A stretch of 21,247 nucleotides of DNA from a virus. Taxonomy: Duplodnaviria; Heunggongvirae; Uroviricota; Caudoviricetes. Below are positions 279 through 18,637 of the stretch, one piece after another. The stretch's first letter is position 1; every line of letters begins with the position of its first letter. The notes under the pieces were generated by a model. It was not told where the DNA came from. It worked only from the letters and a program-made list of their open reading frames with translations, and made no database searches. Where the stretch lies: IMG/VR virus record IMGVR_UViG_2690316149_000020, positions 1 through 21,247 of that record; one strand, given 5' to 3'. Made by a program: the position numbers and the translations under genes.

Positions 279-767
279 ATGGCAGCACCAAAGGGCAACC
301 GATTTTGGGAGGCCCGCAGTAGTCATGGGAGAAACCCTAAATTCGAATCGCCTGAGGCGCTGTGGGCTGCTTGTTGTGAATACTTCGAGTGGGTGGAAGC
401 TAACCCGCTATGGGAGATGAAGGCGTTCTCGTATCAGGGTGAAGTGATACAAGAGCCTATCGCCAAGATGCGAGCGATGACCATTACAGGCCTCACTCTG
501 TTCATTGATGTGACTCTTGAAACATGGCGCACATATCGCCTGCGAGAAGATTTATCTGAAGTCGTTACGCGAGCAGAGCAGGTCATCTACGACCAGAAAT
601 TCTCTGGCGCAGCCGCTGACCTTCTCAACGCTAACATCATCGCCCGTGATTTGGGCCTCAAAGAGCAGTCGCAAGTTGAAGACGTGACACCTGATAAGGG
701 AGATCGCGATAAGCGACGCTCTCGTATCAAGGAGCTATTCAACCGTGGAACTGGACGCGATTCTTGA
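279..767 (+). CDS. terminase small subunit (P22 gp3-like, 162 aa)
   Basis: Lies immediately upstream of and overlapping the large terminase. The translation from the second ATG ([20 protein letters not shown]...) matches recalled P22 gp3 N-terminus and length. The ORF track's upstream ATG at 273 would add two residues. Confidence 0.8.
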
Positions 768-2244
768 TAACCTGAGCGACGAAGAGCAAATCGAATTGCT
801 CGAGCTACTCGAAGAAGAAGAGAACTACCGGAACACACACCTGCTATATGAATTTACGCCATACAGCAAACAGCGTGAGTTCATCGACGCCGGGCATGAC
901 TATCCAGAGCGCTGTTTTATGGCTGGTAACCAGCTTGGTAAGTCATTTACTGGTGCTGCTGAAGTCGCGTTTCACCTTACCGGGCGTTATCCGGGAACAA
1001 AAGGCTATCCGGCTGATGGTAAATATGGCGGGGAGTGGAAAGGTAAGCGTTTCTATGAGCCTGTTGTCTTCTGGATTGGCGGCGAGACAAACGAGACTGT
1101 AACCAAAACTACTCAACGCATCCTGTGCGGTCGTATCGAAGAGAATGATGAGCCTGGCTACGGTTCCATACCGAAAGAAGACATCATTAGCTGGAAGAAG
1201 TCTCCTTTCTTTCCGAACCTTGTTGATCATCTTCTGGTTAAGCATCACACGGCTGATGGCGTTGAAGATGGCATTTCAATCTGCTACTTCAAACCATACT
1301 CGCAAGGCCGCGCTCGCTGGCAGGGTGACACAATCCACGGCGTGTGGTTTGACGAAGAGCCACCATACAGCATTTATGGCGAAGGTCTTACCCGTACCAA
1401 CAAATACGGGCAATTCTCAATTCTGACGTTTACCCCGCTGATGGGGATGTCTGACGTTGTTACCAAGTTCCTGAAGAATCCCAGCAAGTCGCAGAAAGTG
1501 GTCAACATGACCATCTATGACGCTGAGCACTATACCGACGAGCAGAAAGAGCAAATCATCGCATCCTATCCCGAGCATGAGAGAGAGGCGCGTGCTCGCG
1601 GTATCCCTACGATGGGTAGTGGTCGAATCTTCCAGATACCGGAAGAGACGATTAAGTGTCAGCCGTTCGAATGTCCTGATCACTTCTACGTAATTGGCGG
1701 GATGGATTTCGGATGGGATCACCCGCAGGCGCAGGTTCAGCTTTGGTGGGATAAGGACGCAGACACAATCTACGTTTCACGCGTGTGGAAGGCGAAAGAA
1801 AAAACAGCCGTTCAGGCATGGGGAGCCGTTAAATCATGGGCGCATAAAGTGCCAACCGCATGGCCTCATGACGGAAACCAGCATGAGAAGGGCGGCGGTG
1901 AGCAGCTCAAAGGGCAGTATGCCGACGCTGGTTTTATGATGTTGCAGGAGCATGCGACATGGCCTGATGGCGGTAACGCTGTGGAGCCTGGCATCACTGA
2001 ATTGCGCGACATGATGCTCGATGGTCGCTTCAAAGTATTCAACACCTGTGAGCCATTCTTTGAGGAGTTCCGCCTCTATCACCGTGATGAAAACGGGAAA
2101 ATCGTCAAGCTTAACGACGACGTTCTCTCAGCCGTTCGCTATGCATACATGATGCGCCGCTTCGCCAAAATGATGCGCGACATCAAAAAACCAAAAGAGA
2201 AAAAGATACCAGCCCCAATCAGGCCCATCGCACGGAGAACTTAA
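745..2244 (+). CDS. terminase large subunit (P22 gp2-like, 499 aa)
   Basis: 499-aa ORF in the gp2 position between terS and portal. Its start overlaps the terS 3' end by 23 nt. Length and N-terminus ([25 protein letters not shown]) fit P22-type TerL. Confidence 0.9.
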
Positions 2245-14845: not shown

Positions 14846-15331
14846 TTATCTGATGTTACTGCTACTGTTGCATGTGACTGTATTTCCAAACCCTGAATTG
14901 CAGTTTGTGTAAGTGTCAACTCGTGTTGGATAGGGTTGAGTTATAACAGGCTGTCTCGCTTTTTGCTCGATCGCTTGCATTGTGTTTACAGCCTGATAAT
15001 TCAATAAAGCCTGCTGGAATGCTTGGCTTTGTGCTATTTGTTGGGCTTGTTCTTGGCTTTGTAATTGAACATAAAGATTCTGAAGCTCAAGTCTTGCCTG
15101 TGCGTCACTTATCTTGCCTTCATCGACACTTTGCCCGAGCATCTTTGCAGCAAGGACATACAGCTTAGGTGTTGGTGCTGATGCCATGCGTGAGTCGTTC
15201 TTCACGCTGGCATCAAGGCAATTAGCCATATCGCTAAGCTTTTGATAGCGTTGTTCGCAACTTGCTTGATAGTCACTTACTTTTGCGCACCCAACCAGCA
15301 GAAGCGGGATAATTAACAGTGATTTTTTCAT
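14846..15331 (-). CDS. predicted lipoprotein (161 aa), function unknown; candidate lysogeny-expressed exclusion or conversion factor
   Basis: Internal ATG at 15329-15331 (minus) is preceded by AAGGAG about 10 nt upstream. Signal peptide MKKSLLIIPLLLVGC has lipobox LVGC, and Ala at +2 predicts outer-membrane sorting. Gln-rich mature region with several Cys. The ORF-track start at 15367 lacks an RBS. Confidence 0.65.
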   Translation of the reverse strand: MKKSLLIIPLLLVGCAKVSDYQASCEQRYQKLSDMANCLDASVKNDSRMASAPTPKLYVLAAKMLGQSVDEGKISDAQARLELQNLYVQLQSQEQAQQIAQSQAFQQALLNYQAVNTMQAIEQKARQPVITQPYPTRVDTYTNCNSGFGNTVTCNSSSNIR

Positions 15332-15401
15332 ATGGTTAACTCTCCTTAGTTTTTCACAGGATATCATGAAGGCAATGCCATTTTAGCCGGAAACTAGATT
15401 T

Positions 15402-15668
15402 CTATGTTCCCTTTTTATTATTGCTATACATGGTCTTAAGCGTTTCAAAAACCATTTTCTTAACCATATCAGATTGTTGTTCTGCTATACGCTCTGCATC
15501 GTCAATGTAAACTGATGCAGAGCTTTGTTTAGCCAATGATTCTTCAATCGCTGCAATTATCTCTGAGTTCAGCGACCTGTTATTCATCTTCGCACGCTGC
15601 TTAATTTTCGCGTGGAGTTCATGCGGAAGTCTCAAGTGAAACTGCGCCTCGTCGTATTTGCTGTACAT
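15402..15668 (-). CDS. mnt: Mnt-like ribbon-helix-helix (Arc/MetJ family) repressor (88 aa)
   Basis: C-terminal segment DDAERIAEQQSDMVKKMVFETLKTMY closely resembles the P22 Mnt tetramerisation region. An RHH core (QFHLRLPHELHAKIKQRAKMNNRSLNSEIIAAIEESL) precedes it. Start taken at the internal ATG (15666-15668) to give an Mnt-like length. Confidence 0.8.
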   Translation of the reverse strand: MYSKYDEAQFHLRLPHELHAKIKQRAKMNNRSLNSEIIAAIEESLAKQSSASVYIDDAERIAEQQSDMVKKMVFETLKTMYSNNKKGT

Positions 15669-15741
15669 CCTTGATGCCTCACCAGTTGGGTGGAATGGCA
15701 TCGTAACTTACTGGATAAATACTCAATAGTACCATTTCGGT

Positions 15742-15764: not shown

Positions 15765-15799
15765 CATATCATTCGTCTGGAGCAATGAAATGTCAGATA

Positions 15800-16339
15800 T
15801 CACCTACCATGATTCTCATGATAACCATAGGTCTTTTCAGCCTCACGCCTTACAGCAATTGCATCATCGAGACTCTTAAAGTATCCGAGATTAATGCGCT
15901 TCCCTGCGTCGCTAATATATGCCACCCACTTTTTATGGGTCTTATGCCATGAAACACCTGCGCACCCAGATGTATTGTTTGTGTATTTAGATTTGTTTTT
16001 TAGATTTTCACCGAGACTAACTAGACGCAGGTTGTCTATTGAATTATTTAACCCATTACCATCTTTATGGTCAATTTGCATTCCTGAAGGGATTTCACCA
16101 TAAAACATTTCCCATATTATCCTATGGGCGGCGTATATTTTATCTTGATACCTGATAATTATATAAGATGTTTTCCTGTTCTTGTCCTTGAATATATGTC
16201 CTGCAGGCTTTTCTTTAGATATATTGAACATTTTGGGTCTTGAAAGATATTGGTCACTCCAGTACAGGAGTCCATCGTCTTTTAATACGAATACTTCGTT
16301 CCAGTTCATGTTAACCACCTTTAAATAAAGTTCACTCAT
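15800..16339 (-). CDS. HNH homing-type endonuclease with C-terminal AP2 DNA-binding domain (179 aa; possibly 169 aa from the ATG at 16309)
   Basis: HNH_3 motif [28 protein letters not shown], followed by an AP2-like segment [45 protein letters not shown]. Visibly AT-rich. The alternative start at 16309 has an AAGGTGG Shine-Dalgarno 5 nt upstream. Confidence 0.8.
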
Positions 16340-16396
16340 TATACAAAAAACATGCTAGCAATGAATATTGCTTGCTTAACATATAGAGAAATTAAA

Positions 16397-18637
16397 ATGA
16401 CAGATTCAATAAATGCCAATGTTGTGGTAAGCATGCCTTCGCAACTCTTCACTATGGCTCGTTCTTTTAAAGCCGTAGCCAATGGAAAAATTTATATCGG
16501 TAAAATTGACACTGACCCGGTAAACCCTGAAAACCAGATTCAGGTTTATGTGGAGAACGAAGACGGCTCTCACGTTCCTGTTTCTCAACCAATAATCATT
16601 AACGCTGCTGGATATCCGGTATATAACGGACAGATTGCCAAATTCGTAACCGTGCAAGGCCATTCTATGGCTGTTTATGATGCGTATGGTGCGCAGCAGT
16701 TCTATTTTTCGAATGTGCTGAAGTATGACCCTGACCAACTCAGGCAAGATCTTGCATCTCAAGGAGGTGTTAATCTGGTAAACGGAGCTATCTCACAGGA
16801 AGATCTTGTTTTGCAGTCGATCACAAAAATTCCAAGTTATGATAATTCTAACGTAGTCCAGGCGTGGCGCGATAGTGTTGCGACCTACGGGTATGTTTAC
16901 TTCTCTAATCATTCAAAAAATCAGATGGTGTACACCGTACCGTCTACAGCTGCTAACGCTTCTTTCCTTGCGAACAGTAAAGTAATCATTGATAAAAATG
17001 TCACCCTGAGATTCGACAGTGATCTGTACTCACTGTTTAAATCGTTGCAGTACGAGGGGGAGGGTACGTTTGAATTTACGCACCTGAACTTTAAAGCAAC
17101 CGGTGGAGAAGTGGATTATCTGGCTAAGCAGGCCATCCTCAACCGAAACCCTATTCGCATGAAGCGAGTGGAATGGTCAGATTGTAAAGTTTATTCCATA
17201 AATGGTGACACGTTCTTCTATGAAGGTGAAGTCACCATATCCTCAGATAGCGCAGCTATCTTCCCCTTAACTACTGACCGTACAACAGGCCTGTTCGCAC
17301 CAATAGATATTGGAGAGCATATTTCTGCACATATTCGTATGGAATCTCAGGCCGCCTCAGAAGTTGGGATTGTTCTGCGATGCTCTGGTGGTTGGATGAT
17401 GTTCTATGGGGCACCAGGTGCTACACAGTGGTCTTATAGACAGAAACCAATTGGTGGTCCAGTAGCAGAAGGAACTCCATTCCCGCTGCCAGGAGGTTTA
17501 CTGTCGTACGCCCCGGGCAAAGCAACCGTTGGCGTATCACTGCAAGGTAAAAACTGGGCGCAGATAACGATGAATGGCGTTGGGATACGTTTGCCCTTTG
17601 ATACTGCTGATGTAGGGGATGTATACGAAGTTGGGTTTGTTGCACTGACCACGGCATCTGGAGGTTCTGCGCGTGTAACTGGATTATGCAGCTACACCTC
17701 TGATAATGGCGTGCACGGTAAGCCTCCACTTAATATCCTTATCCACGGTGATAGTACAGCTGAGGATTTCATTTCCGCGTTCAGCTCGTACATTCCGCAA
17801 TTAATGGATGGAGCGAACGGCCACCGTTCACATAGCATTGTAAACAAGGCAGTTGCCGGACAGACAATGAGGCAACAGTTAGATCTCCTGAAGGCTCAGG
17901 GGCCGGGTGATGCTTACATCGTTATTATGGTTGCCGGAACTAACGAAGGGCAGGCAAACCAAAACGGCGATTATATGGCGTCATTGATAGATGAGTTTGT
18001 CTTATATTGCAATGGCCTTGGTCGTATCCCTGTTTGGGTTGAGCCGTGGATGTGGTATAGCCAGTCATTTATTGGAGGGGCTGGCCAGCCATCTTCTAAC
18101 TACGACGGTGTCGCAGAGTTGCGAGAAGCTGGTAAACGCCAGATGATGAAATATGGCAATAACGTCATTTGTGTAACAACAACTCACCAGCTCCCGGCCC
18201 CATATCCAGAGTATTTCAACACGCAATACGACCCACTTCTGCGTGATGACATTCACCAAAGCCAGTTAGGGTATCGTCTGTATGCGGAAATTATCTGCTC
18301 TGCCATTATCGACTGGTGGTCGCGTGTTGATTACACGCCAAGAGCAGCTGTTCAATGGTGGGCTGGAACAAACGTAACAGTACAGGCACCGTCAAGTTTA
18401 ACTGCCAATTCAATTAATATTAAACTGGCAGCCACTTCATTTGCGAATGGCAATACTGTTCTAACGCTTCCGAGGTGGTGCAGACCAAAAGTAACCAAAA
18501 ATGTCCCTGTACCGTTCACTGCTGATGGCGTTTCATTTGGCATGGCAATGGCCACCATTAATGCTTCAACAGGACAAATATCGATTGAAGGGTCCACCAC
18601 TACATCTCCAACGTTCTACATAGATGCGACATGGTAG
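16397..18637 (+). CDS. tailspike: P22 gp9-type head-binding N-terminal domain fused to a distal region with an SGNH/GDSL hydrolase (esterase) domain (746 aa)
   Basis: Start at the ATG giving [18 protein letters not shown]...[26 protein letters not shown]...VLKYDPDQ, the conserved P22 gp9 N-terminus. The ORF-track start at 16352 adds 15 non-homologous residues. SGNH blocks in order: [27 protein letters not shown]. Confidence 0.85.

Follow-up and report, generated by a model that had tools for sequence, protein, structure and literature searches.

Free-standing homing endonucleases have been studied mostly in large lytic phages, e.g. T4, SPO1 and ICP1. That such an insertion can lie in an essential gene which stays functional is known from nrdA of phage Aeh1 and its mobE gene. 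The HNH enzyme I-HmuI of SPO1, which is encoded in a group I intron and has a helix-turn-helix at its C-terminus, is a nickase. In T4-like phages, the free-standing seg genes encode GIY-YIG enzymes and the mob genes HNH enzymes without an AP2 domain. Homing endonuclease genes combining an HNH nuclease with a C-terminal AP2 domain form a described class found in phages, cyanobacteria and protists (Magnani et al. 2004, as summarized in PMC10448857). The IPA-HNH genes of vibriophage ICP1 are free-standing, too, and are found adjacent to essential phage genes or within them (Barth et al. 2023, PMC10448857). In the T4 cases, flanking markers are typically co-converted (SegG, cited in PMC10448857).

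In the window, by which we mean the whole stretch of 21,247 nucleotides that was analysed (IMG/VR virus record IMGVR_UViG_2690316149_000020), an HNH gene lies divergent to the gene of a P22-like tailspike (Table 1). We consider this gene to be, very probably, the core of a cassette of about 610 bp for a free-standing homing endonuclease of the HNH-AP2 type, whose homing site is the translation-start region of P22-like tailspike genes. The encoded protein has the D-H...N...N catalytic signature in common with I-HmuI, is of comparable length (169 aa vs. 174 aa) and, like I-HmuI, has an N-terminal beta-rich region in front of the nuclease core. However, it is free-standing and not intron-encoded, its C-terminus has an AP2 fold instead of the helix-turn-helix, and its gene lies on the strand opposite to the target gene. 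The order of an N-terminal HNH and a C-terminal AP2 domain is that of the described HNH-AP2 class, but the lineage found here occurs at one site only and only in temperate P22-like prophages. Unlike the IPA-HNH proteins of ICP1, which are too diverged for the HNH_3 profile, the protein studied here scores 72 bits with it. As with the seg and mob genes of T4-like phages, there is a free-standing gene, present or absent between collinear genomes, and a target in the carrier that is altered in a way which may allow it to escape cutting; in contrast to both seg and mob, the cassette combines HNH with AP2. Two further differences apply to T4-like intronless homing and to Aeh1, respectively. Co-conversion is not detectable at the cassette, and the tailspike is not split into two polypeptides; instead, its first five codons are replaced by a start borne on the cassette.

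The HNH domain was recognized by sequence, motif and fold. Pfam HNH_3 (PF13392) matched aa 69-112 over profile positions 1-44 of 46 with 72.4 bits (E 2.3e-20; curated cut-off 24.8 bits), and the PHROG family phrog_99 "HNH endonuclease" matched the ORF at 1.8e-59. The best solved relative by sequence was I-HmuI (PDB 1u3e, E 2.5e-5). In an alignment of 38 homologues, the residues D80, H81, N89, N93 and N102 are invariant (numbering of the 169-aa form; 10 has to be added for the 179-aa ORF), and D80, H81 and N102 align with D74, H75 and N96 of I-HmuI. The catalytic residues among them are D80, H81, N93 and N102. This confirms the HNH_3 catalytic motif noted in the initial annotation of the sequence, including the presence of the catalytic histidine and of the residues of the metal-binding motif. 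An AlphaFold model built on the same alignment (mean pLDDT 91) had 1u3e as its top Foldseek match in the PDB (probability 0.98, E 4.3e-3, TM-score 0.40), the low TM-score being in line with an extended multi-domain protein modelled without DNA. Taken together, the HNH domain is an I-HmuI-like His-Me finger core.

The AP2 domain proposed in the initial annotation found support by fold but not by sequence score. Pfam AP2 (PF00847) matched aa 127-156 of the 179-aa ORF with 22.8 bits (E 1.2e-4), which is below the curated cut-off of 33.3 bits; a precomputed PF00847 match is present in several homologues. In the model, residues 119-161 form three strands (119-122, 127-134 and 137-144) and a helix (147-161), with pLDDT values of about 90-98. 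On this part the AP2 domains 7et5 (TEM1), 7et4 and 1gcc (AtERF1) superpose with 1.4-2.2 Å over 46-51 columns at a Foldseek probability of 1.00. The AP2 domain 7wq5 (WRINKLED1) was matched at a probability of 1.00, too, but with 5.6 Å over 71 columns. The Foldseek E-values of the AP2 matches are weak (0.06-0.4), in line with the small size of the domain. According to the predicted structure, the C-terminal domain is thus of AP2 fold, with sub-threshold support from the sequence. A NUMOD4 motif, also named in the initial annotation as a profile to be checked, was not matched, since the Pfam search at E ≤ 0.1 gave only HNH_3 and AP2. No family was found for the protein in an NCBIfam search.

The limits of the inserted segment were obtained by aligning occupied with empty sites. 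In the empty sites the insert is absent and the flanks are joined directly, reading ...GGAGCAATGAAATGTCAGATATCACC/GCAAATGTT. The complete sequence of the empty site is GGAGCAATGAA ATG TCA GAT ATC ACC / GCA AAT GTT GTG and comprises the ribosome binding site (RBS), the ATG and the first codons of the tailspike gene. The insert of 610 bp therefore splits the ancestral tailspike ORF between codons 5 and 6, and the stretch stranded on its left side in the window is identical to the tailspike start of the empty sites. Identical junctions were found across 22 occupied loci with insert lengths of 608-611 bp, and they were confirmed by the pair of the E. coli NRG 857C prophage (occupied) and phage Gally (empty). 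The GC content of the cassette is considerably lower than that of the window (35.6% vs. 49.2%), in line with the AT-rich segment described initially. By contrast, the location given there, between an immunity remnant and the tailspike gene, is correct with respect to an insertion, but the insertion is not intergenic, as it lies inside the tailspike gene at codons 5/6.

Table 1. Coordinates of the features at the tailspike start in the window
Feature	Position	Strand	Remarks
Inserted cassette	15805..16414		610 bp, 35.6% GC; begins TACCATGATT..., ends ...ATGACAGATTCAATAAAT; junctions accurate to about 1 nt
Stranded ancestral tailspike start	15779..15804	+	GGAG 15779-15782, ATG 15790, codons 1-5 ATGTCAGATATCACC; matches the empty-site tailspike start
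Replacement tailspike start	16385..16414	+	AGAGA SD-like motif, ATG 16397, six codons MTDSIN
Palindrome AGCAATGAATATTGCTTGCT	16357..16376		repeat search; in the spacer between HNH and tailspike starts
HNH-AP2 endonuclease CDS	15800..16309	-	169 aa from M11 (probable start); longest ORF to 16339 (179 aa)
Shine-Dalgarno sequence AAGGTGG for HNH M11	16315..16321	-	read from the sequence
Candidate HNH -10 element TGTATAAT	16338..16345	-	consensus match; overlapping the longest-ORF ATG (16339)
mnt repressor gene (left neighbour)	15402..15701	-	Pfam Arc 1.2e-14, Repressor_Mnt 2.5e-11; outside the mobile unit
Tailspike gene	16397..18637	+	746 aa; Pfam Head_binding 2.5e-65

The stranded start opens an ORF of 29 codons (15790-15879), which runs antisense to the 3' end of the HNH gene and ends at a stop codon. 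The stranded start is cut off from the tailspike gene, and its ORF is meaningless. The stranded tailspike codons supply the stop codon of the HNH gene, which is TGA (15800-15802) in the window and TAA in carriers with the ATT ACC allele of the remnant. At its right end the cassette reads ATG ACA GAT TCA ATA AAT, after which the tailspike frame resumes at GCC AAT GTT. Compared to the empty-site starts MSDIT and MTDIT, the start borne on the cassette thus has one Ser codon more. A start of the type MTDSI(N/T) was present in all occupied loci, and M(S/T)DIT in six of the seven empty loci examined; the locus of Sf101, which the regular expression did not match, starts with MSDIT when read separately. 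The replacement RBS and ATG are conserved in all lineages. Judged from these alignments, the cassette offsets its entry into the tailspike coding sequence, which would have beheaded the gene, by bringing a new RBS, an ATG and six codons.

An insert lying in frame between codons 5 and 6, whose closest solved relative is intron-encoded, might alternatively be a self-splicing intron carrying the HNH gene, like that of I-HmuI in SPO1, with splicing restoring MSDIT/ANVV. However, neither a group I nor a group II intron was matched, even at E ≤ 10, and HNH coding sequence on the opposite strand accounts for 505 of the 610 nt. For the other approx. 100 nt, folding was not better than that of shuffled sequence (z 0.72), and RNAalifold predicted no pairs of a consensus RNA structure for the spacer between the HNH and tailspike starts across lineages. 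The palindrome in this spacer differs from lineage to lineage. Furthermore, the replacement RBS and ATG are found in all lineages, and the ORF of the stranded start ends at a stop after 29 codons. With no ribozyme match, an unstructured spacer and an antisense ORF, the intron reading is effectively refuted.

No more credible is an insertion sequence or transposon fragment. The insert is small and AT-rich and has an imperfect direct repeat of some 17-27 nt at its two ends, but this repeat is nothing other than the duplicated tailspike start, and its two copies differ by an indel. As there are neither terminal inverted repeats nor a transposase, an IS or MITE was rejected. The same negligible probability applies to an HNH protein associated with packaging, i.e. 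a terminase cofactor: the gene is located about 14-15 kb away from the ORFs at the left end of the window (745-2244), which we take to be terminase-like from their place in the P22 gene order. It is not an essential packaging factor, since about 99% of the related prophages lack the gene.

For the HNH gene itself, translation probably starts at M11 (16309), giving a protein of 169 aa. This start is favoured by the Shine-Dalgarno sequence in front of it, by the use of the 169-aa form in the PGAP annotation of all E. coli copies, by its conservation in relatives and by the location of the alternative ATG (16339) inside a conserved -10 element. The distance to the divergent tailspike ATG of about 57 bp stated in the initial annotation is accordingly valid for the longest ORF but not for the M11 start, for which it amounts to 87 bp. 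Within the putative -10 element, ATTATA is invariant across four lineages, and TTGATATAAT, found in the other three, equals the extended -10 consensus TGnTATAAT. A generic promoter scan did not report this candidate promoter, and its assignment follows from the conservation of the extended -10 element across lineages only. On this basis it is probable that the cassette carries its own promoter for the endonuclease, which is transcribed away from the tailspike gene, with a start site predicted near 16331.

To the left of the mobile unit lies the mnt repressor gene, for whose homologues PGAP uses a start equivalent to position 15668. No arc or ant gene was found beside mnt in the window, so that the term immunity remnant used in the initial annotation for this neighbour, with its Mnt domains, is a fair description. 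To the right, the head-binding domain of the tailspike comprises aa 4-114 (16406-16738) and is followed by the receptor-binding module.

The gene of the cassette was found in 15 of 5,426 complete E. coli genomes, with one copy per genome, located at the tailspike start in every case. The flanking tailspike-start sequence is present in about 1,159 of these genomes, corresponding to an occupancy of about 1.3%; the gene is therefore not universally present at this position. Seven IMG/VR prophage contigs have the same junctions. Among 50,697 records of isolated phages, no copy of the cassette was detected, even at distant-blastn sensitivity. The low occupancy (about 1.3%) and the lack of a carrier among isolated phages speak against homing, and the drive may be weak or lapsed.

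Carriers have three alleles of the stranded start, ATGTCAGATATCACC, ATGACAGACATCACC and ATGACAGACATTACC, each of which is also present in empty sites. The occupied prophage of NRG 857C and phage Gally, whose site is empty, have the same tailspike, differing at 1 of 1,817 nt, and the stranded remnant of NRG 857C is the start allele of Gally itself. The tailspike type of the window occurs without the cassette in nine E. coli genomes (98% identity). Its combination with the cassette was not found again among the 15 E. coli carriers, the seven IMG/VR contigs and one further contig match. The neighbourhood of the cassette is highly variable on both sides: the 14 intact tailspikes of carriers comprise 12 unrelated receptor-binding modules, and the left neighbours are mnt alleles, ant, a P63C gene, gp16 or a degraded prophage.

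The cassette shows an identity of 98.85% (minimum 98.0%) across 17 distinct haplotypes of carriers. For the 315 nt to the right of it the identity is 92.2% among carriers, 91.3% among empty sites and 91.9% between both groups. This seven-fold drop in diversity is confined to the 610 bp of the cassette. A right-hand co-conversion tract was looked for in steps of 45 nt, but there was no gradient, and carriers equalled empty sites from the first 45 nt on. A haplotype of the head-binding domain specific for carriers was rejected, as carrier and empty-site haplotypes intermix. A graded co-conversion on the left side, with the remnants of the loci L005/L016 and L014 as patches from a donor, was considered and discarded, too, because both hybrid alleles are native in empty sites (1 and 8 IMG/VR contigs, respectively). 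According to these comparisons, the mobile unit stops within a few nucleotides at either edge. Presence or absence at a fixed site and a cassette more uniform than its flanks agree with the free-standing, mobile gene of homing type assumed in the initial annotation. The absence of a co-conversion tract on either side, which classical intronless homing often leaves behind, is an observation against homing. The sharp edges of the cassette are compatible with short-tract repair, but also with ordinary recombination within the flanks.

It had further been suggested in the initial annotation that the gene promoted or accompanied the exchange of the tailspike and immI modules. In such a scenario, receptor modules and immI genes would be swapped more readily through breaks that the enzyme sets at the tailspike start, and the cassette would mark a recombination boundary. 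This idea would fit the 12 receptor modules and the several immI configurations that carriers combine with an almost unchanged cassette, and in other phages homing endonuclease genes have been reported at genetic exchange boundaries (PMC10448857). However, cassette-free prophages exhibit the same module diversity, the head-binding haplotypes of carriers and empty sites intermix from the first 45 nt, and the same complete tailspike exists with and without the cassette. Moreover, carriers and non-carriers do not differ in the boundary of the receptor module, which coincides with the end of the head-binding domain (around 16738), some 340 bp away from the cassette. The sharp edges, the recipient's own remnant on the left and the tailspike shared by NRG 857C and Gally indicate that the cassette enters pre-existing module combinations. 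The suggestion of module exchange was therefore not upheld, and we regard it as quite unlikely, although some recombination stimulated by breaks of the enzyme is conceivable.

Relatives with 65-83% aa identity to the HNH protein are present in Enterobacter ludwigii, Salmonella enterica, a metagenome prophage and another E. coli. All of them are divergent to, and located beside, the Head_binding tailspike gene of a P22-like prophage. The next homologues, with at most 48% identity, are HNH genes of lytic siphophages. The Salmonella locus (L007), compared to the empty phage VSe13, shows the same architecture, with a stranded GGAGCA...ATGTCAGATATCA on the left and, on the right side of the occupied copy, the native start lengthened by one TCC codon. 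In the most diverged lineage (L010), the tailspike begins with MTDSIT and a stranded start is missing; the stop codon of its HNH gene directly follows the ant terminator. This layout likely represents the ancestral, truly intergenic arrangement.

Between the window and the Salmonella copy dN/dS was about 0.11; for the other lineage pairs dS was saturated, with dN values of 0.11-0.31. According to these sequence comparisons, the HNH gene is kept under purifying selection at the tailspike start in several enterobacterial genera. Decayed copies exist as well. One is interrupted by a nonsense mutation (152 aa), and the copy of Escherichia whittamii is frameshifted and deleted at its 5' end, while its left junction is unchanged. 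Long-term constraint, horizontal spread and occasional decay together correspond to the life cycle expected of a homing endonuclease gene.

Purifying selection on the HNH protein would also be expected if the cassette were a passive passenger of the ordinary mosaic recombination of P22-like phages, its HNH gene being kept for superinfection exclusion, with the nuclease cutting the tailspike gene of incoming P22-like phages, or for a role of AP2 as regulator. Several observations are in accordance with this: the cassette lies in the immI/moron region among genes expressed in the lysogen such as mnt, it has a candidate host-type promoter of its own, its occupancy is low and restricted to prophages, and a co-conversion tract was not detected. 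On the other hand, undirected recombination would hardly produce an exact junction in three recipient alleles together with a seven-fold drop in diversity confined to the cassette. Decayed copies are expected of a selfish element, not of a useful gene, and PADLOC, searched for defence systems, matched the HNH protein only to generic "homing endonuclease" models. We therefore consider a mere passenger unlikely. Exclusion and homing are compatible with each other.

Returning to a homing cassette, its spread may be pictured as follows. Cassette-bearing and cassette-free P22-like genomes would meet by co-infection or when a phage superinfects a lysogen. The enzyme would bind the intact tailspike start of the cassette-free genome and nick or cut it near codon 5/6, and recombinational repair templated by the carrier genome would copy the cassette into the empty site. 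The carrier genome itself would be protected, because the insert interrupts its site, and the extra Ser codon and nearby substitutions set the rebuilt start apart from the native one. As to its origin, an intergenic ancestor as in L010 may have been followed by illegitimate joining of the 3' end of the HNH gene to a broken tailspike gene. The stranded start left by this joining could then serve as a left homology arm of about 25 bp, whatever gene is located upstream. Cleavage, its position and any transmission advantage of the cassette are inferred.

A more far-reaching proposal, which we put forward as speculative and rather unlikely, is that of a start-replacing homing element which recognizes the tailspike translation-initiation region common to P22-like phages of several genera and, expressed from its host-type promoter in the lysogen, cuts the tailspike genes of incoming cassette-free phages. 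It would thereby act as a weapon of superinfection or marker exclusion and a gene drive at the same time, with the stranded start as universal left arm for any immI configuration.

In a full-text literature search, which missed many subscription papers, there was no description of an HNH gene at the start of a P22-like tailspike gene. The HNH genes reported in epsilon34 and SEN22 are located elsewhere. A lineage dedicated to the tailspike start in temperate P22-like phages, its fidelity to this site across genera and the compensation by start replacement thus appear to be unreported. For temperate P22-like prophages (E. coli, Salmonella and Enterobacter), the cassette offers a compact and, by comparison, well-resolved case of a homing endonuclease gene. 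It is directed at the one stretch of the tailspike gene that is conserved across phages of different host ranges, and it illustrates how a selfish insert can enter an essential gene without killing it by means of a replacement RBS and start codon. Since matched occupied and empty alleles are available (NRG 857C/Gally; window/GPEC1240), both cleavage and homing can be assayed directly. Should the enzyme prove specific for the tailspike start, it may be used to select or engineer exchanges of P22-like tailspikes. For annotation, care has to be taken with the start codons of both the tailspike and the HNH gene, and the stranded start is not to be annotated as a gene.

Between the candidate promoter of the HNH endonuclease gene and the new, cassette-borne ribosome binding site of the tailspike gene, a palindrome occurs at the same place in each of the four HNH lineages, and it is a different one in every lineage (Table). 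Among these four palindromes no alignable RNA structure was found. The palindrome may represent an operator.

The -10 element of the HNH gene is adjoined by an A-run (16345-16350), which is variable among the E. coli cassettes and thereby accounts for their lengths of 608-611 bp. Furthermore, the E. coli lineage possesses one base fewer than the TGnTATAAT motif of the other HNH lineages, this base having been lost in the E. coli lineage. Variation of the A-run and base loss at this element may tune the expression of the endonuclease.

On the other side of the cassette, a sigma-70-like site was detected, the -35 hexamer of which overlaps the first two codons of the stranded start of the tailspike gene. 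This site could be the promoter of mnt. If so, entry of the cassette between codons 5 and 6, rather than further upstream, spares the promoter.

Features of the cassette spacer and of the region to the left of the cassette
Feature	Position	Strand	Remarks
Spacer palindrome	16357-16376		equivalent spacer in the other HNH lineages (L006, L007, L010)
Sigma-70-like site	15768-15796	-	CTGACA, 17 nt, AATGAT
173-aa ORF	14846-15367	-	lipoprotein-like N-terminus (MKKSLLIIPLLLVGC); member of phrog_6067

To the left of mnt, the 173-aa ORF showed no match in Pfam or PADLOC. Many P22-like prophages of E. coli possess the same gene in the interval from gp16 to mnt (e.g. WP_000749291). It is a candidate moron, located at the place of sieA in P22.

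The receptor-binding part of the tailspike (16739-18637) weakly matches Pfam Lipase_GDSL_2 (E 1.3e-3, under cut-off), a signature of GDSL/SGNH hydrolases, and partial homologues of this part are named 'SGNH/GDSL hydrolase family protein' in RefSeq. The protein may be a tailspike of the esterase (deacetylating) type. Over the final ~180 nt of the receptor-binding part, there is 95% identity with the 3' end of a gene annotated as 'endo-N-acetylneuraminidase' in the myophage ESCO9, which suggests a C-terminal module common to both.

In the prophage of E. coli A30 (L028, NZ_CP092500), the complete tailspike gene is preceded by an additional, truncated 5' fragment of a tailspike gene (1879-2480, MSDITTNAVVVNPRP...), which belongs to a different allele. 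About 400 bp without an HNH gene lie between the two. An IS66 element is located near this fragment, indicating that the tail end of the prophage was rearranged. In other P22-like prophages, the E. coli matches H50 (NZ_AP042519) and H68 (NZ_CP100930), IS1 and IS3 elements were detected in or beside the 5' region of the tailspike gene, the annotation of which is thereby broken into two. The decayed cassette of Escherichia whittamii Sa2BVA5 (L046) retains the left junction together with a frameshifted HNH gene, of which about 370 nt are left; unrelated sequence occupies the place of the 5' third of this gene, of the spacer and of the head-binding domain.
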